A stretch of 63,677 nt of DNA, counting the filler, from Kipferlia bialata (lineage: Eukaryota): NCBI GenBank assembly GCA_003568945.1. It is 6 parts of 6 records of this genome, joined end to end, with 100 filler letters (N's around TTAATTAATTAA, not from the genome) between each part and the next. Parts side by side here need not be neighbours in the genome. Positions count along the whole stretch, not along the records: positions 12,286 to 24,466 come from BDIP01001122.1; 5 more parts are not named here. One strand, given 5' to 3'. The notes under the pieces were generated by a model. The model was not told where the DNA came from. It did no database searches and was given only the letters and a program-made list of their open reading frames with translations. Both the position numbers and the translations under genes were made by a program. This document shows positions 153-61,291 of the stretch, one piece after another. The number at the start of each line of letters is the position of its first letter. Position 1 is the first letter of the stretch.

Positions 153-197
<45 letters not shown>

Positions 198-12132: not shown

Positions 12133-12185
12133 GAGGGACAGAGACTAAGGGGGGGGGGGGGGGGGGGGAAACACACACCGGGCTT

Positions 12186-12285: not shown

Positions 12286-13634
12286 ACCTACCCCCTGCCC
12301 CCCACGCACTGCTGCAGAGGGGGGTGGCAACGCAGGTATGGTTGTATGTATATTTATATGTAGTATGTCTGTCAGGTGTAGTATGTGTAACGTTTATGAG
12401 ATTATGAATTTTTGTGTACCTATCCTCACACTAGGTTGAGTGCCTTGCCGCCGACTCCCGGGGTGGACTGGTCAGACACCAGATTGGGAAGAGCGTGAAC
12501 TCAAGGGCAATCCTCGCAGACACTAAGGTAGATATCAAATTATTCCATCATTTCTTGATAATTCTTTATTGCTCAGATTAACGACTTGACATCATTCCTC
12601 GTATCTCATGTATTTAATCTAATTGTTAAATTCATTGAATGATAAGGTATGATTGTAAAATATTGTTTATAACTCTAGGACAAGGCCCTCTCCCCCGTGT
12701 TGTCTCTGGCCACCATGATTGTGGCCAAGACCCCCACCCTCCTACCATGGGGTGGGTTGACAATGGGGCAGGAGACAGTAGGTGTGTAAGTCTATGTTTA
12801 CATTAGTTAATATACATATACATACATATACATATATACATATATTTACACCTAACCCTTCAGCCATGGGCATGCTCCTGGCTGTCTCTAAGCTCCACGA
12901 GGTGCTGGTCCTGTCCATGCAGCAGGTAAATATATATATATATATATACTATGTACAATGATATATAGTATATAATTATATATAAAGTGTGTATTAATAG
13001 TGTATGTCCATGAGGTGCTGGTTCTGTCCATGCAGCAGGTATTATTTACACATTTATGAAATTTTATAATATATAATATATACTCTATAGTATATACTCT
13101 ACATAGGAATTTTGTGTGAAGTGTGGACAGTCTCATATGGTTATGTATGTTCTTGATGTACTGGTCCTGTCCATGCAGCAGGCATCCATATATATAGAGA
13201 GTATAATGATGTATGTGTATTGATACTCTATACCTTCTACATTATCTATATGTACCTGTATACCCCTCTATCTTACCCCCAGGGCCGTGGCGAGAAGATG
13301 CTAGCCAACATCCCCAGACCTATCAAGAAGGCAGAGGGAGAGGGAGAGGGAGAGGGAGAGAGAGCAGAGCCAGCCAGCACAAGCTGTAGTGTCGCATGGA
13401 GACCCAACACTAAGCCATTGCACGAGCAGCACTCAGGTATATATTTATATATATATACACATACCCTTATCTCGCGTTCTGTAGGAACATACCTTATCTC
13501 GCAGGCTCCCAGACCCTCGCTGTCTCCTGGGGCGACTCCATCCGTGTGTATGCCCTGCTGCAGAACAGTGGCATGGCATCGCCAGATGCTGAGAGACCGG
13601 CACAGATGCAGGTGTGTATATAGGATATACATAT

Positions 13635-13665
<31 letters not shown>

Positions 13666-13860
13666 CATATATATATAGAGAGAGATATATGTTACACTGA
13701 CTGCTTATGCTGAGAGACCGGCCCAGATGCAGGTGGGTATATAGGATATACATACATATATATATACATATACATATATATAGAGAGAGAGATAGATGTT
13801 ACACTGACTGCTTATGCAGAGAGACCGGCCCAGATGCAGGTGGGTATATAGGATATACAC

Positions 13861-13891
<31 letters not shown>

Positions 13892-16800
13892 AAGATAGAG
13901 ATAGATGTTTCACTGACTGCTTATGCAGAGAGACCGGCCCAGATGCAGGTGGGTATTTAGGATATACATATTTATATATATATATACATATACATATTTA
14001 TATATATATATACATATACATATACATATATATAGAGAGAGAGACCGGCCCAGATGCAGGTTGGATAATTCTATTCCTGTCTCTATGTGTACATATATTT
14101 GTATATAGTCATTATACACCCCAACCCCAGGTTGTCGAGATAGACTCATTCTCCCAACACTGTTGTTTGAATATTTCGCTCTCTCAATATATATATATAG
14201 TTCATATTTACCTTTACGTCCTTTACACACCTCACCCCAGGTTGTCGAGATGGACTCCTTCTCCCTCCCTCTTCACTAACCATATATATGCAATTTTGAG
14301 TATATGCATTATCTATGTAGTATATATATAACTCCTCCATTCCTTGCCTAACTTCAGGTTGTCGAGATGGACTCCTTCTCCCTCCCTCTTCACTAATGAT
14401 ATACTATTTGAGTAGTTTATATATAACTATTCACATCAATTGCATGCCTAACCCCAGGTTGTGGAGATGGACTCCTTCTCCCTGCCTCGCACACCCGGCC
14501 TCGACAAGGATAGGTGTGTACATGTATGTATTGTGCCTATCAGTCTGGATAACGAATCCTTTGTGGCCTCTGCAACTTACCTGGCAATGTGTGCCTGGGG
14601 CTGTTTCTCTCCCCCCCTCCCCCCTCTCTCTCTCACACCCTAGGGAGTGCCTGGTAGGCGTTGCCTGGGCTGGCCCCCAGTACATAGTGGGAGTGGTCAG
14701 AGACTCAAGGAGTGAGCACGGAGACAGGTATACATGCTTTAATTTGAGTATATATACATTTGTTGACATATGTATATGTGTGTATCCTAACATCAGGCTC
14801 ATCGTTGTCCCCTTCGACCCTACTGGTAGAAGGGCCCGGGAGAGCAGGAGGGAGAGAGAGAGAGAGGCGAGGAGGCTGCAGGGCGAGGTCTCTCTCACTG
14901 TAGATGGGCCCAATGTGGTGTCATTCTCTCTCTCTAGACACGGATCGGAGAAGGAGACAGTCCTGGACACGGACGGAAGGTACGATATTCACACACATAC
15001 ACACATATATGCACATATATTAATTATACACACACACACATATATATATATACGGGTCCGAGAAGGAGACAGTCCTGGACACGGACGGAAGGTACTATTA
15101 TCACTAATATATTTATGTATAATATACATACATATATAGGTGGGAGACAGTCGGACGGGAGGTACTATTGTGTGATATGTTATACTCTTAGAATGAACAA
15201 TGGTTCATGTGAGTGATTGTCAGTTGTTATACCTTGTTAATAGCCATGGCTATATGTAGCTTATGTTCATATGTCTACATCACAACCTCACGGTAGACTG
15301 TATGTGCAGTATATGATATACTTCAGTATCTAACCCCAGACTGTATGTCAGACCACCCTCAATGGCAGTGTAGTTTAGTAGTTCTAATAACATAAACAAG
15401 GAGTATATGTCATTATACGTCACTACCTACCCCAGACTCTATGTGCAGACCACCCTGAAGGGCAGTGTTGTGGGGAGGGATGTCAGGGTGTCAAACGGGG
15501 AAGTGAGACAAGTTGTTGTGTCCCATGCCCAGATTGAGACTGACCCCCTGTCCGGGGATGTGTTTGTACTCACAGGTGGGGAACATTTGCTTTCTCATAA
15601 CCTAATATATATGTAATATTTGTATGCCTCTAACATCAGAGAACATCCACAACACATATATGGATACCAGATGATCAGTGATATATAGCTTAATCATTTT
15701 ATACATAGGAATATGTATTATTTAGGTACCTCTAACATCAGAGAACACCCAGTCCATGTATACTACCCGTGATACATCTTTATGATGTATCAAATACTTC
15801 TATACATCATTTTGTACCCCTGATGTCAGAGAACAGCCACACCACCTCCATGGACCCTTCTAGGGAGGGTGGTGCTAATGGAGTGTACAGGGTCAAGATA
15901 CTGCCCGCTAGACAGGTACACATTAACTACTGTATATATGTATACGTTGTTATTTCGTATCTGCATCTCACCCTATTAGGTTGGCTAAGACCTCATCCGC
16001 AATGCCTTTATCGTTCTTCATACATACTCATACCATTATATGCATTATATCTATTCATTATTAGTATCTGACCCTTCCAGGTTGGCGAGGACCTCATTCG
16101 CAATGCATCCAACCAGTCGAGTAAGCTGGCACCTGCCCTGCAGCTATTGGCAGACTCACTCCCTACATCTAGGTACTGTATGTATATACTACTGTACTAC
16201 CAGTTGTATTAACAGTTAGTTATCAAATACCTGCCTCACCCTCAGCTCCGATCTCCGTCAGCATGCTGTGCGTATGGCATCATACCACCTGCATACCATC
16301 ATGGCCAACCCTGACCTGGAGGACATGGAGATAGGGGGGCCTAGGCCTACTTACAGGTTTGTTGTATATGTATATACATTCATATATATTTTTATATACA
16401 TGGACTGAGGGATCTAAGCCTACTTTTAGGTATGGGTATACCTGTATACATACAGCAGTATGTTTTTCTCCCATATGCCTAACCCCAAGGGCCGTTGCCA
16501 GTGTCGTTACTGCAGCCTACTGTCTGGCCGGGAACTACCAGACAATATCAGGTAATTGAACGAACTATACGAATTTTCTATATTTTGTTCATCTGTGCTG
16601 GGCCAGGACACATTTATTGAGTACAGAGATACATTCACACTATTATTAATGAATGTACCATCAATATATCTATAATATTCATATTCATAATATTCTAACC
16701 ATCAGGCTGGGCCCAGGACATGTTACCCACGCTCGAGGCACTGTCTCCCACCCTGAGGCACAGGTAGGGGGTAGTAGTGTACACAATACTGAATATGTAG

Positions 16801-19800
16801 TATTGTATGTATTATATATAGTAAGTGTAATGTAATATGTAGGATTTTCCGTTCCTAACCCCAGGATCTATGTGGCCATGTCCCAGCTGGTCCTGCACCT
16901 CAACTCCTCTCTCTATATATATGTATTCTCAATTGATTAGTGTGTACATATATATATTTTTTTGCATTCTAAACCCCCAGGATATACGTGGCCATGTCCC
17001 AACTGGTCCTGCACCTCACACGCACTCATGGCGAGGTATATACACACACACACACACCCATGAATATATATATGTATATGGTTCATCACTTTGGCGGCAC
17101 TCTCTGTCTATATAGGGCATGGAGAGTGACCCACACGCACTCATGGCGAGGTATATACACCTGTATATATGTGTGTATAATGTATTTATATATGCACATA
17201 TACACTAACCCCAAGGGGTCTCTATGCCGAGGACATCTGTGGCAGTGTGGCAGACTGTGCCCTGGGGATGGGACACGTCAAGCTGGCACTCTCACTGGCT
17301 GTACACCCAGGTACATAGTATATGTATAATGCATACATTATATACGCACACTATATATATACACGTCAAGCTGGCACTCTCACTGGCTGTGCATCCAGGT
17401 ACATAGTAGTATGTGCATAATGTCTGTATTATGTATATATACACAATATTATATTTATAAATGAATAGTGTGGCATATGTATTACATTTCTCTTTCTGTG
17501 TATCTACATGCATCTCACTCCTCTAACCACCCAGGCTGTGACCCCATGACCGATCTCTTGAGAAATATATATATATATATATACCGACTATTCTCTATAT
17601 ATATTGACTTGTGTTGTGTTTACTGTCAGGCTGTGACCCCATGACCGATCTGCTTAGGGTGTCCAGACTGGCCATGGGCATGTCGCCTATACCATCTCAG
17701 GTATATTAGTATATATATATATATATGTATGTATCTATATTTATATATACTGCTTAGGGTGTCCAGACTGGCCATGGGCATGTCGCCCATACCGTCACAG
17801 GTATATATATATGTAGAGAGAGAAAGAGAGAAAGAGAGAGGGGGGGGGGGGTATTTGTATATTTCTTTATGTTTATACACTATTTTATATAGACTGGCCA
17901 TGGGCATGTCTCCCATTCCATCTCAGGTACTGATTCTTGTATACTCATTTATATACACTCAGACGTACACATGTGTACATATATACATAACGTGTACTTT
18001 CTTTACCTACTTGCTCACCCCAGGCCATCACGATGTTCTATGATCAAGATCTATGTTCACTTCTTCTAATACACACGCACGTATATATCTATGATGATAT
18101 ACTAACCCCCAGGCCATCACGATGTTCTATGGTCATGCCCTGTCCAACAGAGTAATCACACCCTTGAGAGTGGAGGAGGTACGGTATTTGTGGTATACTT
18201 CCAAACTGGATTATGTATCCCTACCTCTCCATCTCTCTCTCTCTCCCACCCCTCTTCTATCTCTCCCCATCTCACCCCAGAGTGCCTCCTCGACCGTTGT
18301 CTCTCAAGGCGGTGGTGGGGCAGAGTTCTCCCAGTCCCTGTCTGCACCTGCCAGGATACTGGTCCCACATGTGCTCTATAGAGTGCTGTTCTCACCCCCA
18401 CCTGGGGCGCCAAACATGCCATTGTCACCGACATCTACGAGGTATGGATATATATGTTTTTAGATACAAGTTCGGATCTTCAGTATATGTTTTCAAGTAC
18501 CCTTCCACACCCTCTACACCTCACTCACCCTTCAGTTACAACAAGGCGTTGTTCCGGTGGATAGATACGGACCCATCAGTGCTCAGGTATGCATGAGTAG
18601 TCGTATATGTCTACATATATATACTTTTATGTCATGTCTCAATGATTGCTCTTCTCCTTACACTTAGGACCCTCGTTGCCCCCTTCCTGAGGGGTGATGC
18701 GCTGCCCAGTGCCAGCATAGCACCCAGGGTGGGACCGGCACCGGAGACACAGGTATGTGTGGATATACTATGGAGACATGTCATATGTGAATATTTCTAT
18801 GTGTATTAGTGTAATACAATATTGTTGTATGAATGTATTAGACATACTTTTAACCCTTAGGCCATGCAACAGATCTGCGGTGTCCTTGAGCCATCCCTGG
18901 TGGGGAAGGGACTCGGGGTGTCAGAGGCAACACTCAAGGTTAGTGTATACACTCATGTATATTATAATGAATAATATTTAATAATATTTAATGGCTATAC
19001 ATTCAATTATATGTGTTGGTATAAGGTACTTGGGGTGTCAGGGGCAACTCTCAAGGTAAAGATGGGATTGTCAGATGTATATATGGTAGTTTGCCTTATT
19101 GGTTTGTATCTAACCCTCAGGCCGTTGTGTGCTTTGTGGTTGAGAGACTCTGCCAGTCAGTCCACTCAGATGTGTACAGGTGGGGATATGATATGACCAT
19201 TACTTTCTACACACATATATATATACATTTATATGTAGATTCATGTATTGTTCATACTTATGTGTGTACTTATGTGTATATTCAAATACTGGTTATATAC
19301 CTTAACCATCAGCCAGAAGTGGAATGTTCTCATGTCCCCTGCTGCCTGGGCCGTGTTATTGTTGGTGCTGCTGAGGGCACCATTGCACACAGTGCACCAG
19401 CAGGTATTCTATTTCTATGCACCATATATATGGACAATACATATGGATGTCCAAGTATCCTGTGCCTAACCTCAGGGCCTTGACCTTGTCCTGTCTGACA
19501 AGGCCCTGTCTGAGAGGGGCCAGGGGGTGCTGGTATCACCTGAACTCATACTGAGGATACCACTGGTGCAGGTAGGGATATGTGTACACTACGCAGTGAA
19601 GTAAATACTACTATGAAGTGTCCAGTGAACTCACACAAGCTCCTCCTGACCAAGAGCAAGAGACCAATTACACACACACATATTTTTATGTATTTATCTA
19701 GTGCACACCGTCTAACCCCATAACATGCTGACCAAAAGCAAGTGATTTTATATACCCACACACACACATATATATATGTGTGTGTGTCATATGGTATATA

Positions 19801-22800
19801 ATATTCTAACTTCTCAGGACATCCTGACCAAGAGTGGTGCAGAAGGGGAGAGTGAGAGTGCATATCTATCCATATATATCAATATCTATCTATATATGTA
19901 TACATCCATATATACATCCATATATAATAGTATATATGTGTGATTATACTATACAGTGCACTAACCATTAGGACATCCTGACCAAGAGTGGTGCAGAGGG
20001 GGAGAGTACATATCTATCCATATATATGTATAATAGTATATATGTATATGTGTGTATGTATGTATATAGTATACAGTACACTAACCATTAGGACATCCTG
20101 ACCAAGAGTGGTGCAGATGCAGAGGGGGAGAGTGAGAGGCAGACATTCGAGGAGCACCTGGTCAGACTCCTAGGGACAAGGTATAGCATATGAATGTTTC
20201 TATATACGTATGTACATATAGTCACCTCTCACCCTACAGGTCCATGGTGTCATGCCGCCCTATCGTGGATCTGGACCTGAGACAGCTGGCAAGGGTCGCT
20301 TCAGCAGGTATTCGTTTGAATACATATTGTATCGGATTATTATCTGGGCCAAAGTGTTATTGTATTATATATATATGTTGATACTCACACCCAGGTGGCA
20401 TGCAGATTGCGTCTTCCATGCTGGACATGAAGCGTATACTTATATGTATATATGAATATACCAATACTCACCCCCAGGTGGCATGCAGATTGTCTCCTCC
20501 CTGCTGGAGGTCATGGATATGAAGTAGTATATATAGTTCTATATAGATAGATACATGTATCATATTTTACCCTCAGGTGGCATGCAGATTGTGTCCTCCA
20601 TGCTTGAGGTCATGGACAGTGGCAACAGTGTGGGTGCTGGCCCCAGTGCCATCTCTCCACCCCTGGGCTCACCCGTTGCACCACCATCCGCTGTACTGTC
20701 TAGGTATCAGTATCAGTACCAGTATCAGTATATATATCATATATACTGATACTAGTAGTATATGTCATATATACTGATGTCTAGGTCTGTCCTGGCCAAG
20801 CTGCTGAGGGTGGGCGAGAAGGAGAGAGACAGGAAGGGTGGGAAGAGAGACCGGGGCAGGAGCGCAAAGGAGAGGGAGAGAGAGAGAGAGAGAGAGCTCG
20901 AGGGAGAGGTTGTGGTCAGGCCGGCTGACATGGCTGTGCAGTATGTCAAGGTGGGTTCATACATGCATATATATACATTCTTGTTGTGTCTTCAGTATTG
21001 TGTCCTTACCACACTAGGTCCTGCTAGAGGCTGACTATGACGATGGCACCGGGTCCAAGCCTAGGTCGGGGCTAGGTGTGAGATTTTGTGTCTCCTCAAA
21101 ACCTCTCTTTACCTGCTCATGATTAGTGTCCTCAGTCAAAACCATGGCTTGAGTTTTATTTTATTATCTCTATGGACTATACATATTTACAAGTCTTACC
21201 CTCAGTCCGCCACATTGAGGCCTCGTCTAGGCTGGAGGAGCTACTCGAGACACACCTCGACCACTTGCTGCTTGATAGTACACCAGGTACATATGTATGT
21301 ATATATATATGTACGCTTGCATATAACCATGTGAGATGAACCCCCTAATATTCAGGCATTGCCGCCGAGCTACACCTCAACAAATCAGCATTTGTATATA
21401 GTGTATGTATGTTTAGGCATCTAACCCAGGCATTGCCGCCGAGCTGCTCCTCAAGATGTACCGGTACAACCCTGCATTTGCAGTGTCAGTATTGAGTGAG
21501 AGACAGGTGGGGGTTGAATAGTTTACAATATGTAGTGCTGAGTATTGTGTGTTGTATATTATAATTATTCATAAATATCATCACCCTAGGACCTCTGGCC
21601 CGTCCTTGTTCTGTTCGTTGTTGCTGTTGTGGAGCCGTCTCTACTGGTATCTGGCACAGACGCCAGATGCGCAGAGGACCTGGCCAAGGTTGGTAACAAT
21701 CACATGCACTGATGTATGGATATGGTGTGCGTGTAAAAATAGGGTGTTAAAGTACACTACATTGATCTACTGTCTGCAGGGATAGTTGGTGCTATGATTG
21801 AAGGGTGTTGCAATTATCCCCTCACTGTCAGGCCGGCCGTTCCCTCCGGTCTGGGGTCAAGGAGGCCCTGGCATCATACTCGGCACACACGGACAGGTAT
21901 TCATATATATAGATATATATATACAATACGTATATGTATACATCCACACACATAAGTATTGAGTGGAGGAGGCACTGGCACCATACTCGGCTCACATGGA
22001 TAGGTGTGTTTGTATATATGTATTTATATAAATATACTACAATATGTATATACATCTATCGACATATATATGTGTATAGTTGAGGAGGCACTGGCATCAT
22101 ACTCGGCATACNNNNNNNNNNNNNNNNNNNNNNNNNNNNNNNNNNNNNNNNNNNNNNNNNNNNNNNNNNNNNNNNNNNNNNNNNNNNNNNNNNNATTTAT
22201 CTACATATGTATACACTACAATACGCATATATATACATATATCGACATACATATGTATTGAGTTGAGGAGGCCCTGGCGTCATACTCGGCATTTAAATAA
22301 GTGTATGTGTATTTGTACTTATAGTTGGAATATCAAATCCATTGGAGTGTGATTTTGGCTCGGCCTCACTCTCTCCCCCCCCCCCATCCCCCCCGGTGAA
22401 GTAGCGTTTGCTGATCATCCATCCTGACTGCTAGTCATGATACTTTCCTCCATATATACCATGTCTCTAACACTCTAGGGACCTGCAGCTTCGCAGGCGG
22501 AAGGAGATTGAGACGAGGGTGGCAAACTACCTGGATGCCCATCCCTTTGCCTATCTCGCGTATAGGCTGCACTCTGCTGATACGGTGGACGGGGCAGTGG
22601 TGGTCACACCAGGGGCCAAGGTATATATGATGCGGTCCCCTCTCGATTAATATACCCAGGCAAGACAATGTCTGTATGTACTTGTATAGAGAGTACATGT
22701 ACAATAATACCTTTCTCTCAATCTCAAATACGCATATATGTGTCTTATCTCTAGGTCAGGCGGTGTCTGCAGGCTGTGCGCATTGTATATACACATTCCA

Positions 22801-24197
22801 TTTTTAGTATATGTATATATGTTGATTTATACTTACTATGTCTTATCTCTAGGTCAGACAGTGTCTGCAGGCTGTGCGCACCGGGGAGGTCAACATGGAG
22901 GGCAATGTCACACAGTGGATAGGAGTAGAGACACTAGGCAGCATGTACTGTGCCATGGTCAGGTATATGTATATATATCCAGAGGCAGATTCACAGATAT
23001 AGTATTTCGTTGCATTCTCTTCCTGTATTAATTGTAGTCCAACCCCAGGCACCGCCCCACCTATGCCGCCTCTCTCTGCCAGTCCCTCCTGGGGTTCATA
23101 CCCTCAGACACAGCCGTGGTGCAGATGGTGGACAGGTAAGGGTGCAGTTCATTGTGTAATTATGATACTTCTGATAGTATATTCAAGATGTTGACCTAAC
23201 CCTCCCAGGGGCATGGGCGAGCTGAGACGTCTCGACACAGCCTCAGAGGCCAAGAGAGAGGATACACAGGAGGCAAAGGTATCCTTCCGTAAAAGTACAT
23301 GATATTATTAGTGTTCTGTCACATCTATATGTGTGTGGGTATCGTATACGCAGTATACACAATGTATGTATCAGTGAATTCTTTGGTGCCTCAGAGACCA
23401 AATAGTATTCATATTATCCATACATATTTGTAGATACTGACCCTCCAGGTCTCTGCCGCCCTGAGAAGGACTCTTGTCTTTGAGGCAGTGCTGCACCTGG
23501 CACTCAGTGACAGCAGGTACTCTCTATCTCTCTGTCTCTCTCTCTCTCTTTTCCTTCATATTCACCATTTCTTCAAAATTCTGGCGCTGTGTCCTCACCC
23601 CAGAGCCCTCGGCACTGGAGACACCGAGAGAGACAGTGTTCTGCCACCAGAGAAGACATTTGCACTTCTCAGAGACTCCTCGGAGGTATGGTTATAACTA
23701 TTATACATGCTATAATATATACGTCATCTACCTCACTAACCCCAGGCTGATCTGGTCTATCTGGACCTAGCCCTTGAGGGCATGCCCCCCGCTGCAGTGG
23801 AGAGTGGGGTCGCAGTGGTGGACACATACGCAGTCAAGACTGTGACTACACGCATCGGGATGTACACACACTACCTCAACACAAGGGTGGGTTGTCTGAC
23901 ATGCTCAAGTGCACTCTCTGTCTGAATAGTCTATTGTTTCTCTCTCTCTCCCTTACCCTTAGGTCCAGAGGCACCTGAGGAGGACAGAGGGTGGCAAGGA
24001 CATATACAAGGTATGGATGCATTTGACCCTTACTTCTATTGCGTATCCCAGTCCATAGTTCTCAATTGAAGCAATATATCCATGTTTCCAGTGCTCTATA
24101 TATAGAGAGTATATTTTTCTAACCCCCAGGTCACTGTGGACCCTGGCCAGCGTGCCCTGGAGGCAGCGTACGAGGCCCTATTAGTGGTGTTCAGTAG
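12286..24197 (+). CDS. VPS8: VPS8-like CORVET subunit (beta-propeller then alpha-solenoid), internal fragment of roughly 40 exons, both ends missing
   Basis: Spliced N-terminal exons read CLAADSRGG..NSRAILADTK..MLLAVSKLHEVLVLSM..SVAWRP..TLAVSWGDSIRVY..LVGVAWAGPQYIV. This matches the order of VPS8 propeller motifs as recalled (ICNDSGG, SRCLFSGSK, LLAMASLTKILVI, LAW, LAFCRGD, INFTWINS). Helical exons follow. Confidence 0.6.
13612..14457 (+). repeat. Exon-echo array inside one VPS8-like intron (4 donor-end copies then 3 acceptor-end copies)
   Basis: GAGAGACCGGCCCAGATGCAG|GT copies end at 13732, 13839, 13948 and 14059. CAG|GTTGTCGAGAT copies start at 14131, 14241 and 14358. Confidence 0.95.
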
Positions 24198-24416
24198 GTA
24201 TAACATTCATATAGATATGTACTCTCCATCTCTCTCTCTATATATATGTGTGTGCGCGTGTGTATGTTCTTGAGGGAGCATACGATGCATGATTAGTGGT
24301 GTTCAGCAGTATAGTATTCTGTTCCATATACTACATGTTCTGATAAGGTGGAGGTCATTGGTGTGTATAGCAGGTATATTTCACTTCGGATTACTTTTAT
24401 TTATTCTCTGTTATTC

Positions 24417-24466
<50 letters not shown>

Positions 24467-24566: not shown

Positions 24567-24615
<49 letters not shown>

Positions 24616-24653
24616 CGATACGTACACAATGGGAGAGAGTGGCAAATACTCAC

Positions 24654-36846: not shown

Positions 36847-36918
36847 TCCCTCTGCAACTATCGACTTTTTTTCACCCCCCCCCCCCCCCCCCCCCCCACC
36901 ACCACACTTACATATATT

Positions 36919-36959
<41 letters not shown>

Positions 36960-36981
36960 ATGTATATATGTGTGTACTCAC

Positions 36982-38487
36982 TCTGCAGCCAGGTCGTGCT
37001 GAATGCGCACCAGGAACTTGTTGTCAAGACCTGGGAATTAAGGGTGTAGAGATGAAAAACGCTATGTTACAGGGAATAGAGGTACTATTTAGTAAATAGT
37101 ATTTACAGGGTGAAGATACACAACTAAAGGGTGCAGAGATGAACACTAGGAGCTCTTCATATATACATATATATATATATACTTCTGCCTATATATGTAA
37201 TAGTGACTATATATGACAATACCTGGGTGCTCCACATCGTGACTGGCAGCTGCAAAGTATATATATATAAATATATACATCTTGATAGACTTATATATAT
37301 AACTACTAACTATATACATATATATATGTGTGTATATATACCTGGGTGCTCCACGTCGTGACTGGCAGCTGCCAGGATGAGGGCCAGGAGCTCAAGGTCA
37401 CCAAACACATGCCTATGGTTGGCAATATTATATACATGCATAGAGTATATATATACACTATGGATATATACTATGGATGAGGGCCAAGAGCTCAAGGTCG
37501 CCAAAGGCATGCCTATGGCTAAGTGATTGTATAAAGAGATAACAGTGTTGAAATAGAGGACATGCGTTTCGCTGGTAGACCCTAAAGTATACATACTTGT
37601 TGCTATATAATACATATACATCTCACTGATACCTGTTCTTGGCTAGCATTGTCCTGGCCATGCAGACACACCTGGAGAATAAGGGTGCAGAGGGGGAGAG
37701 AATGAGAATGAGATAGAGATAGAGAGAGAGAGAGAGAGCACTCACATGTGGCAGACGTCTGTGGCGTGGGTCGAGTTGTGGTATATACATATACGATATA
37801 TGCACCTGTAAGTATATGTATAAATATGTACATATACATCTTACTCACATGTGGCAGACGTCTGTGGCGTGGGTCGAGTTGTGGTATGTGTTGCAGCTGC
37901 TGTAGGCGGCCTGGGGTGAGAGATACATAGCATATATATANNNNNNNNNNNNNNNNNNNNNNNNNNNNNNNNNNNNNNNNNNNNNNNNNNNNNNNNNNNN
38001 NNNNNNNNNNNNNNNNNNNNNNNNNNNNNNNNNNNNNNNNNNNNNNNNNNNNNNNNNNNNNNNNNNNNNNNNNNNNNNNNNNNNNNNNNNNNNNNNNNNN
38101 NNNNNNNNNNNNNNNNNNNNNTATATATACAGTATCATGTGTTGCAGCTGCTGTAGGCGGCCTGGGGTGGGAAAGAATAGAATATAGTAATACACTATAA
38201 ATATCCATACAATACAATGATTGATATAGATAGACATACCAGCATAGCGGTACACTAGGAACCACATCTGGGACTATTATGAAACACACACCTACATATA
38301 TGGAGGATACATATATATATATAGATATACAGTACCCTACCTGCATTGTGGACACCACATAGATATATAGATATATATATATATATATATACTTTATTAT
38401 ACTATAATTAATACACACACTATATATATGGAGGATACATATACAAATATATATACAGTGCCCTACCTGCATTGTGGACATTTACAG

Positions 38488-38519
<32 letters not shown>

Positions 38520-41500
38520 TATACATACCTGCATTGTGGACACCAGGTACCACATCTGGGACCTGCTGATGTGGAGCCTGTGGATTAAGGGTGCAGATAC
38601 ATGTATATCTATATATATATGTATATATATAGAGAGAGAGAGAACGAAGAGACCTGCTGATGTGGAGCCTGGGGGGTAAGGATAGAGAGGGAGAGATATT
38701 ATTAGTCAGTAACATAGTTATAGCTTTAATACATCGGTGATAACACTTACCGCTCATACAGCTTCATCTCGTGCATGGCACTGTCCACCAGGGTGGGCAG
38801 GGCAAGGAAGGAGGCAGCTCTGATATAAGATGGTATATGCAGTATATATACATATATATATTTGAAGAGAGAGAGAGAGAGAGAGAGGTAGACACCAGGG
38901 TGGGCAGGGCAAGGAAGGAGGCAGCCCTGGGGTGAGGTACACATACTATTTACTACTCAGGGTGTGAGAGAGAGAAAGATATATATATGTATAACGGTCA
39001 AGACGAGGAGGTGTCTCTACACAGACTAGGAATACTAGTGATATACAATAGTTCATATACTAACCTAGGATACCCCGCTATCTCCCCCGTGTTCTCCTTG
39101 GCATCAGAGTCTCTCTCTCTCTCTGCCAGTACTATATAGTATATAACAATTTATATATATAGTTTATATATACAATCAAGTACCTAGGATACCCCGCTAT
39201 CTCCCCCGTGTTCTCCTTGGCATCTGGTGGGAAGGTCTTGAATACATCAAAGTCGGCATTCCATACAAGCTGATATTAAGGGTGTAGAGGGAGAGAGAGA
39301 GAGTAGTTCTTGAAGACAACAAGTCAGCATTCCACACAAGCTGGGTATTAGGGGTGTAGAGGGAGAGAGAGCGAGAGAGAGAGAGTGAGAGAGAATAGTT
39401 CTTGAAGACATCAAACTCAGCATTCCAGACAAGGTGGTATTATGGTACTATAATATCGTACTATAACACTATAAGAATAAATATACAATGTATAGAGTAC
39501 ATATCCGTCGCTCAAAGGGTCTTTTTGGCATTCGGTACACAGTGACATATACTACATATATCCATACGTAGTATACACTATGACACTACATGCTATATAA
39601 TGATAACAATATATACAACATATACATCCATACCTCTACCCCTATGGGTCTCTTTGGCATTGGGTACACAGTGGTATATATATTATACATTGTATAGTAT
39701 GTTTGTATATATATTTACTATACACAAAATAGATAATGTGTACTATACCTCGATGGGTCTCTTTGGCATTGGGTACACAGTAGTATATAATGTATCTTCT
39801 TCTCATATATATATACATACATCAATAGAGGTATACATATATATATATATATATACCCATACCTCAATAGGTCTCTTTGGCATTTGGTACACAGTGACGG
39901 TGACATGTACTATATACATGTACAATATATATTGTACGGTATACATATAAACCTATTTATATATTGAATAGTCTCCATACCTCAATAGGTCTCTTTGGCA
40001 TTGGGTACACAGTGATGGGAGGGGAAGGGGGGAACACCTCATTGCTAGGGGTCAGAGAACATCTACTATCTACAAACTGACACTGCGGTATAATAGACTG
40101 TCATCTCTCACTCACTCACCCTATTGCCGCCGCCCTCTCCCTGGCCTCATCCTCTGTCTCCACGCATAACACATAACTCATACTAAATACTGCATATAAT
40201 ATAAGTATATATACTATTGATTAAGACTAATGCTACATACCCAATGGCAGCCGCCCTCTCTCTAGCCTCGTCCTCTGTCTCCACTCATAACACAAACCAC
40301 ATACTAAATACTGCATATAATATATGTATATATACTATTGATTAAGACTAATACTCCATACCCTATTGCAGCTGCTCTCTCCCGTGCCTCGTCTTCTGTC
40401 TCCACTCGGCTCAGGGTGCAGTGGGCCTCCTTACGGGGGCCCTAATAGTAAGTAATTGTCGTTATTACACTACCCTATGTATATAGATATACTGTGTGTG
40501 CTACTAGATTGAGGGTGCAGTGGGCCTCCTTGCGGGGGCCCTAAGAGTCAACTATAGGTGTTGTGCTTATACAATCAATTATATAATAGAATTATAATAT
40601 GTATGATATTATAGAATTACAATATGTATATTATTGAGCTCAGGGTGCAGTGGGCATCCTTACGGGGTCCCTAACGGTCAAACAGAGTAAGAAGATCCCA
40701 AAATGTAGGGTTATAGTGTAGCACAACTATATATATATGTACCTGCCATCCGGATAATGGGTTAGCATATTCACATACATGTACATATAATTCAAATGTA
40801 TGATATAATTAATGTCTAATGAATATTTATATATATGAATATATATATATAATAAATATATATGTATATGTGTACCTGTCATCCCGAGAATATGTCGTAC
40901 TAAGTATAGTTGTGGTTATCATATATATATATATGTACAAAAATGTAATTAGTATAATAATTAATATAATAGTAAATTCATATTTACATATATATACATA
41001 TAATTACCTGCCATCCCGAGAATATGTCGAGCATCAGGTCCTTGTCAATGCCTGAAATAAGGTCCAGCAGTCAACTAAAGGGTCTAGTGAATATAGTATG
41101 GTAGCCTGAAATAAGGGTGTAGTCGCCAACAAAAGGGTCTAGTAAATGCAAGAAGAGTGAAGAGTGAAGAGTGAAAGCATATACCTGAGCGTGCTATGGC
41201 CTTGTCTCTCTCCCTCTGCCTCTCTCTCTCCCTCTCGTGGCTGGGGGTAAGCAAACACCAATTTATCCATTTCATGGCATGTATACTAGGTCACTTATGA
41301 GGAATAGATATGCCAATCATATATAGATACCCCAATCAAGGCATATAGAGGTGTATACTCACCGCATTCTGGGCACGATGTCAGGTGCTGTGTTTGTGTC
41401 ATTGGCATCTCTCGAGTCACGCACACCCAGGAGAAGGTCACGGCCTGATGTAAGAACTATATGTATATATAGAATACAACATAAACCATAGTATAGGGGT

Positions 41501-42741
41501 GTGAATTGGCATCCCAGCAGGAGGGCACTGCCTGATGTGAATATATAATCAATGTATTTACCATAGTGATACAAGGTCTATACAAATATTGAAGTGGTTG
41601 GATACCCAGTTGTGCATACGAGTTGACCATGAAGTGCGCCACCTCATATATAATACATACACATATGTATAACATATACATACTTATATATACTTATATT
41701 TATTAGACACAGTACCTGTTGGCTCTATACTGACTACTGGTTGGATATCCAGCTGTGCATATGAGTTGACCATGAAGTGTGCCACCTCAAGTGCCTCTCG
41801 GTCAGGCTTAGAGAGACCAATGATCCTGCTTATTAGAGAATAGAGTTGGTACGTCATCATCATCATTCATAGTGGAGTATATAAGTAGAGCCTCTCGGTC
41901 AGGCTTAGAGAGGCAAATGATCCTGATAGTAACATACTATTAGTAAGGGTGTAGCAGAGATGAATAAAGGGTGTAGCAGGTATGTGTCATGGCTTGGAGA
42001 GGCCAATGTTCCTGAGGGTATAGCGTGGGTATATATATCAAAGGTTTGGACATGGTGGTAAATATACATGTACAATATGGAGTACCTGTATCTCTCACTG
42101 TTGACCATGTTATCCAGGGTATCCATCTATACGTATACTATATACTATAGCATATATATATATATATATTACATACCATGTATATATATAGTACCTGTAT
42201 CTCTCACTGTTGACCATGTTGTCTAGGGTGTCCATATACACATACTATATACTATAGCATATATATATAAATGTATACCATGTATATATACTATATATGT
42301 ACCTGTATCTCTCACTGTTGACCATGTTGTCCAGGGTATCTAGGATAGATACAACGGGGAGGCCAGTCTTCCTACGCAGAACCTGGGGTTAGAGATATAG
42401 TTAGGAATATATGAACATATATACTCGGTATCTAGGATGGACACAACGGGGAGGCCAGTCTTGCGACGGAGTACCTTAGTATAAGAGGACTTATATATAT
42501 ATACACACACACACATATATATATACACACAGAGAGAGAGAGGGAGATGCGCCAACGGGCAGACCGGTCTAGGTCTTGCGACGCAGGACCTGGAGTAAGG
42601 TATATATACAGGTATATATAAATCCATATATGCTAGTAACATGTTCATCTTCATATAAAATTCACTCACTCACCTGATTCACCCCGTCCATGACCACATC
42701 CTGCAGGGGGGTATATATATATACATACATACACTATACTG

Positions 42742-42772
<31 letters not shown>

Positions 42773-44240
42773 CTATACCTGATTCACCCCGTCCATGACC
42801 ACATCCTGCAGGGGGTTATATACAGTAAATACATATACTAATATATATATATATATATTATGCATATTATGTATATAATACATGAGTATACCTGGTTCAC
42901 CCCGTCCATCACTACATCCTGCAGGGGGTGGACAAACCTCCTCATCTGGGAACCCCTGGTATAAGGGCAATACTCAGAATGAATGGGGGTACATCGATAC
43001 AAGTGTAGTATTAAACTGTATAGAATATCATAGTTCTTTTCAAATAATTATGGGATTAGACTCATGCAAAGAGTGACGACAGCAAAAATGAGAGTCAGGG
43101 TTGTACCTCCAGTGCCACAGCTTGCTGAACATGTCAAAGGACCTGGACATGCATAAATATATTATATAACTATATACAATAATAATGTATATATATATGT
43201 ATGATGTAGTCTAATAGTTAAGGGTATAGACTCCTACCTCCAGTGCCACAGTTTGCTGAACATGTCAAAGGACCTGGACATGTGGTCTATGCCATACAGG
43301 AGGTCAACGATGACATAGAACCTGAGGGATAAGAGGGTGTAGAGAGAGAGAGCATGTGGTCAATGCCATAGAGGAGGTCGACGATGACATAGAACCTGAG
43401 AGATAAAAGGGTGTAGAGAGAGAGAGAGAGAGATGTGGTCTATGTCATACAGGAGGTCAACGATGACATAGAACCTAGAGATTAGCATACAAGAACATTC
43501 ATATTATTATATATTATTAGAGAGAGAGAGAGAGAGAGAGAGAAACCTGCTCTATACCTGCTTGAGTAGAACTGCCTCAGGGTATGCTTCTCGAGCTGGG
43601 CAAGGACCTCCTATAGATAAGAGACACAATACAATTATGCTTGCACAGTGTTAACTATCTGACAACATTACTAAACATGTACTTATGACTATATACGTAA
43701 GATGCAATTATTGTAGGTATCATACATAAATATGCATGTTGTGGAAGTGTACACACCTCTTCGACTGCCTCAAACACAGCCATACTATCTCTAACACTAG
43801 TGTAAAAGAACAAACATACAGCCACCCACACATATACTAGTTTGTATACACTGATATACACATATCCTACCTCCTCGACTGCCTCAAACACAGTCACGGC
43901 CTCAGAGGTCATCCTGGCCTGGTATGAGATAGTGTATAGAGTGATACATATCTAATACACTATACTATCCAAATACATCTACACAACAGCCTCAATAATT
44001 ATTATGTAAATATATATATATACTATATAGTCACGGCCTCAGAGGTCATCCTGACCTGGGGGTTAGATTAAAGAGTATAATTGAATAGATGTATATGCTA
44101 CATTTACATACTACAGACATATACACCCACCTTTAAGTCGGGTATCATCCTAGGCACCTTGGTCACACAATCATATCCAAGTCTATCTATACTATATGGA
44201 TACATACATATTTACTATGCTAGTATTCTTCTTTATCAAT

Positions 44241-44278
<38 letters not shown>

Positions 44279-45340
44279 GTCATAATACCTTCAAGTCCGG
44301 TATCATCCTGGGCACTTTGGCCACACAATCATATCCAAGTATATCTATCTACAACTATATATATATATAGATATATACATATTTTATATGGATACATACA
44401 CATACTGTGCAAAAATACCTTCAGGTCTGGTATCATCCTGGGCACCTTGGTCACACCCCCAATGTGGATACGGTTCTGGAGTGTTAGCTAGAAGAACACG
44501 AGGTCATGGATCCACTTGTATACTCTCAACCATGTACACATAACAATGTGTTTGGAAAGACAGAAGTAGCTCTATATGTATGTACGTCAAACGTGTATAC
44601 CTTCAACCCCGCATTACAGTATGCTACCCCAGATATATACATACACAGATTCTTGATGCATACAATTATCAAGATTCAATACTACATACTTAATACATAC
44701 TATATTATAACTAAATACCTTCAACCCTGCATTTTACACATATATATATATATATATATATACATATATATACATATATACCTTCAACCCCGCATTGCAG
44801 TATGCTGCCCCCAGGTAGGTGAGACCACACCGGCACTTGGCAAGGGCAGCCTGAATATAAGGGTGTAGAGGGAGAGAGAGACAGGGAGAGAGAGAGAATC
44901 ACTAGACACCTGGCAAGGGCAGCCTGGCAATAAGGGTGTAGAGGGAGAGAGAGAGAATTACTAGACACTTGGCAAGGGCAGCCTGGGATAAAGGGTGTAG
45001 AGGGAGAGAGAGAGAGAGATGACTCTCACCTTTGGGAAATACAACTGCCCCAAAGACATGTAATAGAGAGATAGTATACTATAGTATACACACCCTCGAG
45101 ACCTCTATGACTGGGGCATCATCGTGGGAGTGTAGGTACCTGGAATAAGGGTGTAGTATCTATTAAGGGTGTAGGTACCTGGAATGAGGGTGTGGACGAA
45201 GGGAACAAGGATGTAGTCTGTGTACAAGTACAATAATACGTGCAAATACAATATGAATATGTGAGGGTACTCTCTATGCAATACAACACGTACTGTGCAA
45301 ATATGGTGCATGCCAGTCAGTCTCTCTCTATATATATGAC

Positions 45341-45380
<40 letters not shown>

Positions 45381-48300
45381 AATATATAGGAATACGTACT
45401 GTGCAAATATGGTGCATGCCAGTCTGTTGGGGTCCACCTCAGTGTCCTTGGTGTCCACTTGCTGGGATGAGGAATAAAGGCACAATGGGTAGCACCTATA
45501 TATGTATTGGTACATTGTACAATTCTAGTATAACTTATGCATAACAACCTCAGTATCCTTGGTGTCCACTTGCTGGGATAAGGCTATATTAGGCAGGGAA
45601 CTACTCCAATGTCATTACAAGTGACTATTATAGTATGACTTATGTACTACTTACATATATACATAGTCGTACCCGTCTGTACTCCAGTGTTGCATTCAGG
45701 AACTCCATGCTCAGCCTGGCCTTGGGGTTGCCCTACAGTCAATGAAGTAAGCAGTGATACTAGACCTAGTATTGTAATAATGGACATATTCAAGAGAATT
45801 TTTACTACATAACATTGTCGTGATTGTTCACAGGCCCTTTTACCTGTCTTCTGACGACTAGATTGACTGTTAAACTACATGTCTTCTGACGAACAGAGCA
45901 AAGAGGTCATAATGAATACTATACAAGGATATATACCTATTATAGACGCATATATATATAAATATATATCCAATATACCTGTCTTCTGACGAACAAAGCA
46001 AAGAGGTCATAATGAATAGTACATAACGATTCTACATATATACATATATTTAGTATAATTATATATAATACACTATTGTATATATATAAATATTTTGTAA
46101 AATTATATATAATACACTAATGTAGTACCTGTCTTCTGACGAACAGGGCAAAGAGGTCGTAATGAATTTCTACATTACGATTCTACATAATACACTCGTA
46201 TATATATATTTAGTAAAAATATATATAATACACTAATGTATATATATATATATTTAGTAAAATTATATATAATACACTAATGGGTTACCTGTCTTCTGAC
46301 AAACAGGGCAAAGAGGTCGTGTCCATGGACAATCTCAAAGAGACCATTGAGGGTGCCTGTGGGAAAACAACAGTAAACAAATGAAATACATATGAATATA
46401 TGAATGTCTATCAGTGTACTACGCAATGAAAGATATCTCAAACAGGCCATTGAGGGTGCCTAGTGATTAAGGGTGTAGAGTGTGTGAGAGAGAGAACAAT
46501 ACAACCTCAAACAGACCATTGAGGGTGCCTGTGAGATAAGGGTGTAGAGGGAGAGAGAGAGGGGGACAGAAACTACACCACCATATAGATGAAAGTGAAT
46601 ATATCGAATATATAATGCTAACCAATACACCACGCAACAAAAGAGTACCTGGCACATTGGTTGTCAGTACCAGCGGGTGCACAAACGCGAGTACAATGAT
46701 GATGCCACTGTTGCCAAGTACAGCAGACCAGATGACACCGCAATATGCCTTAGAGTCAGTATGTATAGAAACACACATATGTATATACATATATATACAT
46801 ATGTTAATGAGTGTATATATATGTACAAGTGATTATGCCACTGTTGCCAAGTACAGCAGACCATATCACTCCACAATAGGCCTAGACGTAAGTAGATATC
46901 TTATATATAAACTAGATATATATCCAAATAGAGTATTCTAATCCAACACTCACCTGAGGCGTGACATGCATTGACACATGTAATTATATGGATACTAATA
47001 TATACATATACTTACATATGTATATATGTACTGACCTTACATGAATACTTATATACACATATACTTATATATGTATATATATACTGACCTGGGGTGTGAC
47101 ATGCTGCAGAAAGGCGTGGTACACATAGTACACAATGGCAGTGCGGGCAAGGGCAACAAGGGCAAAGACAAGCCAGTATAGGCTGAACCTGGAATAAGGG
47201 TGTAGAAGGAGAGAGAGAGAGAGAGAGTAAGGGCAACAAGGGCAAAGACAAGCCAATACAGACTGAACCTGGAATGAGGGTGTAGAAGGAGAGAGAGAGA
47301 GAGAGAGAGCAGGGGCAACAAGGGCAAAGACAAGCCAGTAAAGGCTGAACCTGGAATAAGGGGGTAGAAAGAGGAAGAGAGAGACTGTCTCACGCACTGG
47401 AGAGTTAGGGGTGTAGGGGAGGAGAAAAGGGTGTAGGGAGGGAGAGAAATGGGGGTCAATGTATATATATACCTGCTTCGAGAGACTCCTCATCATCACA
47501 GTCTCTCTCTCTCCCTCTCATCTATCTCCTCTGTGTATAGATATGTGTAAACATACACACACATATATATATACCTTCTTCTAAAGACTCCTCCTCCTCT
47601 GTGTCACTGGAGAACTCCATATCACCATAGCAGTGCTTAGTATAAGGGGTCTCCTGAGGTTAAGCATATGTGTGACAGTGTATAGAGAGAGAGAGAGAGA
47701 AGGATGGGAACTCCATGCCTGCATAGCAGTGCTTAGTATAGGGGATCTCCTGAGGTTGGATTGTACACTATACTCCCTAGTATACGTCTATCTAATTAAT
47801 AAATACTAGTAATACAATCATTAATACTATTTACTCCATACCTGTATAGTGATGGGGTCGTTGATGATACTATATATGTGTGGGAATCTATATACATGTA
47901 TGATATACATGCTATTATGCTCCTTACCTGAATAGTGATGGGGTCGTTGATGGCTGTGTTGGTCATAGAGCCATACTGGGATGAGTTAGGGATAAGAACA
48001 CTAATCTTTGTAATAATAGTACTCTAATTTCTATACAATGAGAAAGAGACACATATCATTGTATAAACATAGGAACACCAATCATAGTATGAACGTATAC
48101 AGAGAGAGAGAGACATAAAGAGAAGATGATACTACTTCCAGATGTCCTTCACTCACCTCATCCTCCTGAGTATATGTTGTTTGCATATAGGTATATATAT
48201 ACACATATGCACATATACCTCATCCTCCGAGTATATGTTGTCACAATATATGTAAATACATATATATACACATATATATATATACCTCATCCTCCGAGTA

Positions 48301-48989
48301 TATGTTGTCACTCCATGGCTCAGAGGTGTCTGTGCCCTCAAACCCATGGATACCAGACTGGACCTGGAATAAGGGTGTAGAAGGGGAATATAAGGGTGTA
48401 GAAAGGGAGGTACGGGTGAAGGTGGGGAACATGAAGCAAGAAGAAACTCACAATTTGTGTGAGTACTTAGTATACATATGATGTATTCACATTAAGTACA
48501 TACCAGAAGTCCACAGAGGTATGCATTACACTACATTGTATTCATATACATTACATAATAAATTAACTATAGAGAGGTATACCTCTGCCCCCCTTGCGAA
48601 GCAGAGGAAAAAGGGTGTAGATAGATGTATATATATATATATACTAATATATATATACATAAACATGGGTATACATACTCATATATATACACTCATATAT
48701 ACATATTCATGTATACATACCTCTGCCCCCCTTGCGAAGACATCGATATACTCCACAAGTAGTCAATATGTATACATATATAGATATATACACCTATATG
48801 TATATATACTCATATATATATACCTCTGCCCCCCTTGCGAAGTACATTTATACATATAAATGCAATAGAGAGTAAAGCAACTACGTATGACACTATTGAT
48901 ATACTCCAGTGGCGCATAAAAGTATATAGTATTACCTCTGCCCCCCTTGCGAAGCGTCCTGTCAACAGGAAGTCAGGGGAGTACACGAC
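36982..48989 (-). CDS. Class I cyclic-nucleotide phosphodiesterase with upstream transmembrane segments and an RGS-like domain; about 30 exons, both ends missing
   Basis: PDE motifs WNADFDVF, YHNSTHATDVCH and LELLALILAAASHDVEHPG|LDNKFLV. RGS-like exons at ~46356-43557. Hydrophobic exons FSLYWLVFALVALARTAIVYYVY and AYCGVIWSAVLGNSGIIIVLAFVHP. Phases fit across the RGS exons and the intervening exons read open; one phase conflict near 47400. Confidence 0.85.
40120..40405 (-). repeat. 121-bp-period exon-end echo array (VETEDEARERAAAIG|GT x3)
   Basis: Copies at 40362-40405 (true exon end), 40241-40284 and 40120-40163. Confidence 0.95.
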
Positions 48990-49023
48990 CTGGGGTGAAT
49001 ATAAATATATATATATGTAAATT

Positions 49024-49123: not shown

Positions 49124-49175
<52 letters not shown>

Positions 49176-49725
49176 GTAGATATAGTAGATATATACTACA
49201 CCGCGGTATATCTGGCCATGAATGGTGTGTATATAGAGATGGTATGTATATAGAGATGGTATGTATATTGAGATGGTATGTATATAGGGTTGGTATGTAC
49301 ATATTGTGACAGATACATATGTATTCTACGGAGTCTGCCCAGCTACTGCTGTGTCAAATTCGTATATATATTGGAATTACATATATAGCCTAGAGGGGAC
49401 TATTTTCACATAACTATGGTTAGCAAGTATTTCTCGTATAGACACGACATCCCCCGAACTCCACTCTGCCCAGCTAATATATATTAGGAATAATTATGTA
49501 TAAGTGTTTATATATTCTATGTATTACTATATATAGCATATATATGTATATATGTATATATGTATTCACTTTCTCACTACAGACACCACAGCCCCAGGGT
49601 TCCACTCTGCCCAGCTAATAAGTATTATTATATATATTAATACATTAATAGTGTTTAAAAAAAATACACTATCTATATATATATATGGAATAATTATGTA
49701 TCAATATACTCTATTCTCACTATAG

Positions 49726-51527: not shown

Positions 51528-51561
<34 letters not shown>

Positions 51562-52283
51562 TATATATATTGATATATATATATCACCCCCAAGCCATGG
51601 ACGCCTTGGCCAGGTTCTCCTTTCTCTCTCTCTCTCTCTCACACATATATATATACATATACATATATCAATTGGTATATACTACTAATTCACCCCCAAG
51701 CCATGGACGCCGTGGCCAGGTTCTCCTCTACTATATATACAGTATATTCTTATATGTATATATTCCTCTTTAAGTGACATTACCGGTTCTCATATATTCA
51801 TATATGTTCATTCACATTGACACCAGCCATGGACGCCGTGGCCAGGTTCTCCTCTTCCTATGACATATGCAACGAGGCAGTAGCGGTGCTGTCGTCTATG
51901 GCCAACGGTACGGGTCTATTATAATCTCTATATCTACACTCGGAGTGTAAATCTCTACAGTTATACGGGTATGAAGAAATAGAGGTCCTATCCTCTATGG
52001 CAAACGGTACGTATTGGGAATATCATATCAATATATATACCACCTGCAGAGGTACATGTTCTGCATACATATAACTACCCATATATATATGTGTGTGTGT
52101 ATGTGTGTGTATACATTCATGGCATTAACTTACTAGTCATGATACACCCAGACCATGGTGCATCATCTATATATATATATATGTATATGTATATTATACA
52201 TGGTATTAACTTACTAGTCATGATACACCCAGACCTGCAGAGGGCCATGATACCGTATATATTTTTTCATGTACTATATATCA

Positions 52284-52315
<32 letters not shown>

Positions 52316-52946: not shown

Positions 52947-52979
<33 letters not shown>

Positions 52980-53938: not shown

Positions 53939-54012
<74 letters not shown>

Positions 54013-54697: not shown

Positions 54698-54730
<33 letters not shown>

Positions 54731-55298: not shown

Positions 55299-55335
<37 letters not shown>

Positions 55336-55757: not shown

Positions 55758-55795
<38 letters not shown>

Positions 55796-57376: not shown

Positions 57377-57425
<49 letters not shown>

Positions 57426-61282: not shown

Positions 61283-61291
61283 CTGGGGTAG

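Follow-up and report, generated by a model that had tools for sequence, protein, structure and literature searches.

The intron at positions 13612-14457 of a 63,677-nt stretch of DNA from the metamonad Kipferlia bialata (the window; six contigs of GenBank assembly GCA_003568945.1, joined by spacers) raises the question of how a single intron comes to hold many intact splice sites and how the correct pair is found among them. It interrupts the gene KIPB_004989 and contains four copies of the end of the upstream exon, each with a donor site, followed by three copies of the start of the downstream exon, each with an acceptor site. We refer to such copies as echoes. They differ from the working exons in the manner of coding sequences, and we lean towards a reading in which they are copies of an adjoining exon end together with its splice site, taken from diverged working alleles through imprecise homologous recombination, and would be skipped by pairing across the exon.

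Echo arrays in three genes

The echo census covers the window and uses as its coding reference the NCBI proteins KIPB_004989, KIPB_004993 and KIPB_004996 (K. bialata hypothetical proteins), which map onto it letter for letter with 46, 30 and 21 GT-AG introns, respectively; they were used in place of the models of our own gene finder, which called echoes as exons. Each exon was aligned to its adjacent introns, with non-adjacent exon-intron pairs as the control. Nine of the 97 annotated introns, flanking annotated exons that are echo-like, low-complexity or terminal, were excluded. Among the 88 scored introns, 39 have no echo, 20 have donor echoes only, 14 have acceptor echoes only and 15 have both, such that 49 introns carry 107 echoes in total (63 donor and 44 acceptor). 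The control gave three matches in 1098 pairs, and the echoes are therefore not chance similarities.

Copies of an upstream exon always take in its end and copies of a downstream exon its start. They are mostly 20-50 nt long, cover a median of 46% of the exon, rarely extend beyond about 52 nt, and retain an intact GT or AG in about 95% of cases. Echo number follows intron length (Spearman 0.86), and the central stretches of the arrays are as long as plain introns (median 120 vs 102 nt, Kolmogorov-Smirnov p=0.58). A preliminary description of the target intron had reported a polarised donor-then-acceptor order, intact sites about 100-120 nt apart, an innermost pair of 71 nt, and echoes that almost never carry both sites, all of which is borne out here. 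The real donor GT at 13612 is followed by four echo donors, each behind a 21-26 nt exon-end copy, at spacings of 121, 107, 109 and 111 nt, and the acceptors, with exon-start copies of 25-31 nt, are spaced by 110, 117 and 100 nt; the GT or AG is intact in all seven echoes, whose coordinates are given in Table 1. At 13602 and 14463 every echo carries a base other than that of the outer exon. The count of donor and acceptor echoes and their order that had been proposed as a check, run on the three genes of the window, gives a non-random order in 15/15 two-sided arrays, none of which has an acceptor echo before a donor echo (~10^-8.8 under random order). No donor echo (0/63) has an acceptor at its blind end, and a donor-like GT lies near 19 of the 44 acceptor echoes, which corresponds to the 46% background of plain intron interiors.

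This polarity follows from geometry and survival and needs no special form of splicing. A copy that includes one exon border survives only inside the intron, after its exon if it carries the donor and before its exon if it carries the acceptor, and the donor-then-acceptor order results. A copy with both sites would add an exon, and it is thus the one-sited copies that survive.

Echoes are unevenly distributed among the contigs, with 3-4 repeat bins per 10 kb in the two GC-richer full contigs compared with 25-48 in the others; echo density is about tenfold lower in 1-12185 and 24567-36746 than in 12286-24466 and 36847-61291. Across contigs it tracks low GC and TATATA counts. Several long introns (254-394 nt) have no scored echo (50876-51269, 54697-55074, 15576-15829 and 57892-58147), and some of these may hold older, decayed echoes below the threshold. 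Four annotated exons (17116-17150, 20395-20433, 47351-47396 and 44908-44982) repeat the end or start of a neighbouring exon or contain (CT)n, and are probably either echoes that the gene finder miscalled or rare echoes with two sites that have become mini-exons. Assembly gaps lie inside echo arrays at 22112-22194, 37941-38121 and 55599-55685; these arrays may be longer than assembled, and arrays may contribute to the fragmentation of the assembly. We also note an acceptor cassette, (CT)n followed by CTACACCCTTA, a few bases and AG, of which the KIPB_004993 contig (37049-48620, minus strand) has 25 copies when one mismatch is allowed, located in different introns at both real and echo acceptors; the rest of the window has only two. 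Within a gene, the 3' ends of introns seem to have been copied from one intron to another.

Divergence and origin of the echoes

Comparison of the 107 echoes with their working exons reveals 168 differences, of which 120 are synonymous, 46 are non-synonymous and two create stops, and which fall at third codon positions in 124 cases, against 19 at first and 25 at second positions. The proportions of differing synonymous and non-synonymous sites (pS and pN) are 0.248 and 0.029, a pN/pS of 0.118, and the bias, which the preliminary description overlooked, is present in all three genes and in both echo types. The neutral expectation for the synonymous fraction is 0.257, with a ceiling of 0.41 if the echo is neutral and the working exon changes only silently at the neutral rate, or 0.50 if transitions alone are considered, and the observed 120/168 exceeds both (p=1e-15 and p=7e-9, respectively). 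Simulation with the same detector gave a synonymous fraction of 0.40-0.43, and reaching the observed one requires a silent rate 5-8 times neutral. With the reading frame shifted, 13 and 20 of the 168 differences are synonymous; with one echo taken per array side, 88 of 119 are. When a fixed window anchored at the GT or AG is used, 52/67 differences are silent among close matches, 60/99 among intermediate ones and 37/108 among the weakest.

One reading that does not need diverged alleles is that the echoes are ordinary neutral duplicates and that silent sites in working exons evolve much faster than intronic copies, for a reason that is left unmodelled. It draws on the 31 of 120 silent differences that lie in a CpG context, but 89 of the 129 non-CpG differences are still silent, the silent changes are symmetric with respect to GC and AT (46 vs 50), and the spacers evolve fast rather than slowly. 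As it also has to accommodate the 5-8-fold rate, we give this reading very little credence.

All 17 differences at which the echoes agree with each other against the working exon are silent, which marks the working exon as the constrained copy; among differences private to one echo, 41/61 are silent, and the bias is thus present in the echo lineages as well. The echoes, judged by their sequence, are not coding at present and are now decaying. Twelve of their 17 indels shift the frame, their amino-acid changes have neutral BLOSUM scores (p=0.43), and GT or AG is lost in five of them (one further flag is an N gap). Coding-type differences together with frameshifts, stops and neutral amino-acid changes suggest that the echoes diverged while coding and decayed later, and we consider a two-phase history of this kind very probable. 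It could be argued instead that the echoes are live, with repeat-guided excision of DNA or RNA allowing inner copies to supply coding sequence and keeping them under protein selection, and both the pN/pS of 0.12 and the lack of any non-synonymous change in 193 sites of seven young real-vs-echo pairs would fit. The frameshifting indels, the stops, the neutral-type amino-acid changes, the lost splice dinucleotides and the 17/17 silent exon-specific changes do not, and make live echoes very unlikely.

The genome was assembled from short reads with SPAdes and annotated with AUGUSTUS models using transcript hints, giving 124,912 introns (PMC5874029), and coding-type exon divergence with unalignable introns is typical of haplotypes. 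An assembler that stitched two or more haplotypes in tandem could thus be responsible, and both the near-limit of about 52 nt on echo length and the N gaps in some arrays are compatible with this. However, only 7 of 79 echoes have an exact blind-end run as long as 21 nt, and the blind ends are therefore not k-mer flanks; none of 107 junctions abuts N; the echoes contain loss-of-function changes; and target donors 2-4 show one and the same novel junction in three variant forms. Stitching is an unlikely cause of the arrays, and in our estimation a very unlikely one.

Two copies diverge only at silent sites if both are coding, which is impossible for one-sited fragments on one chromosome, and another allele is thus the simplest source. 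We judge capture between alleles to be probably the leading cause, with the allelic source deduced from this pattern of divergence. In the mechanism that we propose, a break in an AT-rich intron would be repaired on a homologue with similar exons and dissimilar introns. Copying would enter the homologue's exon for 20-50 nt and then join an untrimmed stub of the old intron, creating either an exon end with a donor after the real donor, or an acceptor with an exon start before the real acceptor. Units adjoining the real exon would then be duplicated again, as is seen for a minority, such that arrays would grow at their outer edge, in some cases through simple tandem duplication or unequal exchange, as in target donors 1-4. 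Only intron-located, one-sited copies would persist, which would leave donors before acceptors, and the outermost sites would be spliced together directly. Metamonads lack non-homologous end joining and are thought to depend on modified homologous recombination (PMC8516963, section 8), and inter-allelic transfer resembling synthesis-dependent strand annealing (SDSA) is described as the accepted engine of human minisatellite change (PMC2599865).

The intron sequence between echoes is far less well conserved than the exon parts. At the exon border, identity declines from roughly 0.93 to close to the background level. Only 16/107 neighbouring spacers score above the 99th percentile for unrelated spacers and only 12/107 can be aligned, and X-drop extension into the spacer exceeds the null 95th percentile for only 14/55 donors and 10/41 acceptors. 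In 20/27 arrays the outer spacers resemble one another more closely than the inner ones do (p=3e-4), which argues that arrays grow next to the working exon and that the centre is oldest. In the target intron the innermost donor, the fifth when counted from the real one, keeps its exon part, but the intron sequence behind it has no relationship to that behind donors 1-4. Among the acceptors, the exon parts are almost identical and the intron sides only loosely related. The central 71-nt stretch is likely to be the oldest intact intron, although its age is inferred.

These spacers also bear on a rival origin, in which echoes arise on the same chromosome, either by tandem duplication or by end-joining that adds AT-rich filler, after which gene conversion from diverged alleles, limited to the exon, overwrites the real exon. 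It shares its raw material with capture, with the direction of transfer reversed, and both need very diverged alleles. Target donors 1-4 form a true 107-nt tandem array, the acceptor cassette common to introns of one gene suggests local copying of intron ends, and alignable echo-echo pairs look neutral (2 silent and 3 non-silent changes), all of which favour it. Most spacers, however, are unrelated from the first few bases, where young duplicates should match well into the intron, and fresh filler would have to provide a branch point and an AG every time; we regard the same-chromosome origin as unlikely. A 121-nt tandem unit at 40118-40407, with spacers that differ at 6/75 positions and 40-nt exon parts that have six silent and no non-silent differences, is the clearest single case of exon-limited exchange.

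Several considerations weigh against capture from other alleles, or against the skipping of the captured copies. The allelic divergence needed, a pS of about 0.2 with unalignable introns, would be very high. No second allele was seen: searches with three exons returned one match each, with single-member protein clusters, and metagenome scans with two proteins found no relative, with 0/161 and 0/14 pattern matches confirmed. The three census genes were selected for echo richness, and when the echo with the most private silent changes is dropped from each array the counts become 10 silent vs 11 non-silent (p=0.025). In seven pairs of a real exon and its first echo with alignable spacers, pS is 0.23 (6/12 changes from one pair) and thus above the spacer divergence of 0.07, which whole-unit capture does not predict and which fits exon-limited conversion of the working exon, as in the same-chromosome rival, better. 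With regard to splicing, the outer junction 13612-14457 of the annotated protein rests on an AUGUSTUS model with transcript hints, not on reads. The K. bialata spliceosome is described as reduced (87/174 proteins, with no snRNA candidates found), and U1-associated proteins as nearly absent in metamonads (PMC6679479), such that ordinary exon definition cannot be assumed.

We rejected two further routes by argument: if exon and echo converted each other in both directions, pN/pS could not fall below 0.5, and selection through occasional repeat collapse is too weak unless diversity is already high. Paralogues, at 39-63% identity, are too distant to be the source of the echoes.

Splice-site choice

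The earlier statement that the spliceosome must pass strong decoys agrees with our scores, as echo and real sites are alike (donors p=0.20, acceptors p=0.66) and the echo equals or beats the real site on 39 of 64 array sides. Because the echo sites are as strong as the real ones, the choice must be made by position in at least 42 of the 49 arrays, those that are one-sided (34/49) or two-sided with unequal counts (8/15). The outer sites are always those giving the shortest exon (107 and 56 nt in the target, with a median exon of 69 nt), which likely reflects an exon-definition rule with pairing across the short exon, and positional skipping of decoys by the spliceosome is likewise a likely reading of these patterns.

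The preliminary description had also raised stepwise removal of the intron from the inside out, in the manner of a twintron. The perfect order, the roughly 95% of echoes with intact GT or AG, and the central stretches of plain-intron length are all in keeping with obligatory nested splicing, which would pair donors and acceptors one to one. But the 42 one-sided or unbalanced arrays lack such pairing, and in the target it is impossible for all sites, as there are five donors and four acceptors with the real ones included. If an inner site of a one-sided array is used, spacer will stay in the mRNA except where ligation creates a new site, and this is seldom the case: regeneration at each ligated junction, as in recursive splicing, is not seen, a site could be regenerated in 3/15 acceptor-excess arrays (where the exon starts with GT; background 18/97), and the exon end scores as an acceptor in 2/27 donor-excess arrays (3.4 bits in the target vs a 5th percentile of 5.2). 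The innermost sites are moreover the weakest or broken, including all four of the broken sites in multi-echo arrays and the innermost target donor, which scores 2.2 bits vs 7.8-8.0 for the other donors (plain-intron 10th percentile 3.7). In the target, none of the inner sites can be used by itself without a stop arising. The sites in the list of inner junctions drawn up earlier are intact, but the donor at 13733 was omitted from it. As nesting also leaves the codon-position bias unexplained, and as choice by position in at least 42 arrays means that a stepwise route is needed nowhere, we consider obligatory nested splicing highly improbable; optional inner-first removal of the inner intron is possible. 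Repeated insertion of an exon-end/intron/exon-start patch, suggested earlier as fitting the geometry, requires equal donor and acceptor counts, which occur in 7/49 arrays, and we reject it as the main route.

A branch-point-like A lies 7-9 nt before the end of KIPB_004989 introns and close to the AG (e.g. 14444-14457), an arrangement similar to the fusion of branch point and acceptor reported in diplomonads (PMC6679479). AG precedes the donor GT in 82 of 97 introns.

Exon searches matched one protein per gene at 97-100% identity. A Pfam search with the KIPB_004989 protein gave no family above the cutoff, and its Atlas look-alikes are beta-propeller/alpha-solenoid proteins with scores of 0.90 or less, which we treat as a lead only; the protein may be Vps8-like. 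The C-terminal domain of KIPB_004996 (57649-57891) belongs to a family of at least 10 K. bialata paralogues with identities of 39-63%, some of which carry the label armadillo-like helical. A HMMER library search returned 19 proteins, and the 10 looked up besides the query's own are all K. bialata paralogues in that same identity range.

Table 1. Features of the target intron and of the genes and contigs in the echo census
Feature	Position	Strand	Basis
Annotated GT-AG intron, 846 nt, outermost sites	13612..14457	+	protein mapping
Upstream exon, 107 nt; donor echoes derive from its last 21-26 nt	13505..13611	+	mapping, alignment
Downstream exon, 56 nt, real start 14458; source of the acceptor echoes	14458..14513	+	mapping
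Recent head-to-tail array, 107-nt unit x3.4, 91% matches; spans donors 1-4 and spacers	13632..13996	+	repeat analysis
Donor echo 1: exon-end copy of 26 nt followed by GT at 13733; one synonymous difference	13707..13734	+	alignment
Donor echo 2: GT at 13840; 2 synonymous differences	13814..13841	+	alignment
Donor echo 3: GT at 13949; 2 synonymous differences	13923..13950	+	alignment
Donor echo 4, innermost: GT at 14060, weak donor	14039..14061	+	alignment, site score
Central intron-like stretch, 71 nt, innermost donor to innermost acceptor	14060..14130	+	site positions
Innermost acceptor echo: AG and 25 nt of next exon start (from 14131); 2 synonymous and 1 non-synonymous difference	14129..14155	+	alignment
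Middle acceptor echo: AG and 31 nt (from 14241); 2 synonymous differences	14239..14271	+	alignment
Outer acceptor echo: AG and 31 nt (from 14358); 2 synonymous differences	14356..14388	+	alignment
Host gene KIPB_004989, partial, 1367 aa, 46 annotated introns	12288..24340	+	protein mapping
Contig of KIPB_004993 (phosphodiesterase, PF00233); echoes in 24/26 scored introns	36847..49023	-	census
Contig of KIPB_004996; echoes in 13/21 introns	49124..61291	+	census

Known systems and implications

We found no account of such arrays in Kipferlia in the open papers searched (without supplements), and such repeats are not mentioned in the methods section and the other passages of the genome paper that were covered (PMC5874029). 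The closest parallel is the 37-bp variable number tandem repeat in intron 7 of human F7, as described in PMC1557585, where the unit spans the exon-intron border, intact donor pseudo-sites stand in a row, and only the outermost (most upstream) of several identical donors is used. The K. bialata units also span the border and repeat an intact site. The annotated protein of the target, which is a prediction, takes the outer junction, and inner sites bring stops; use of the outermost site alone may thus apply here too. F7, however, is one locus with identical units on the donor side only, whereas in K. bialata the arrays occur on both sides and in over half of the introns in three genes, and most units share the exon part only, in copies with coding-type divergence; near-identity over the whole unit is true of target donors 1-4, but only 12/107 spacer pairs align. 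The K. bialata arrays thus work like the F7 pseudo-site array, but are two-sided, frequent and built from coding-diverged copies.

Other systems share fewer of these features. The fungal stwintrons and nested complex introns described in PMC5639578 and PMC7138796 likewise have several splice sites in one intervening sequence and an inner pair of ordinary size, but there the inner intron interrupts an outer splice motif and must leave first. In K. bialata the outer donor and acceptor are intact, with inner sites at least 100 nt away, donors and acceptors differ in number, and the copied material is exon sequence. The gain of introns through tandem duplication of a coding segment that contains AGGT (PMC3265369) similarly yields intronic sequence resembling the flanking exons through local duplication, although that route is described as making a new intron from exon, with the copies at the intron ends, whereas K. 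bialata lengthens existing introns and has exon-end copies preceding exon-start copies in their interior. The arrays would work like human GC-rich minisatellites, which gain units by non-reciprocal, SDSA-like conversion between alleles (PMC2599865), but whose units are non-coding and near-identical; those of K. bialata are splice-site-anchored and coding-derived, and their inter-allelic step is inferred. Tandem or mutually exclusive exons would have both sites and an open frame, whereas the echoes have acceptors in 0/63 donor echoes, donors at background, a median exon coverage of 46%, and frameshifts. Intron bodies common to unrelated genes, as in introners or mobile introns, were not seen among the 97 introns; intron-end similarity between the three genes consists of dinucleotide runs only, with the one acceptor cassette almost wholly in one contig.

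If capture and positional skipping are correct, K. bialata would offer thousands of natural F7-like tests of decoy skipping in a short-exon, short-intron organism with a reduced spliceosome. This genome-wide number is an extrapolation; such repeats are about 6-14 times rarer in two of the five full contigs. The arrays would also represent a way for introns to grow and turn over that involves neither transposons nor slippage, and the silent-site signal would be sequence evidence, obtained from one genome, of exchange between very diverged alleles in a free-living metamonad. For annotation, gene finders mistake echoes for mini-exons. More tentatively, K. bialata may continually rewrite its introns, with recombination between highly diverged alleles inserting working exon ends together with their splice sites, arrays growing outward and collapsing between repeats, and intron sequence being replaced wholesale. 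Should this be so, the stacked echoes in its introns would amount to a fossil record of cryptic sex in a metamonad, and a reduced spliceosome poor in U1 proteins would have to pick the true sites among equally strong decoys by position alone.

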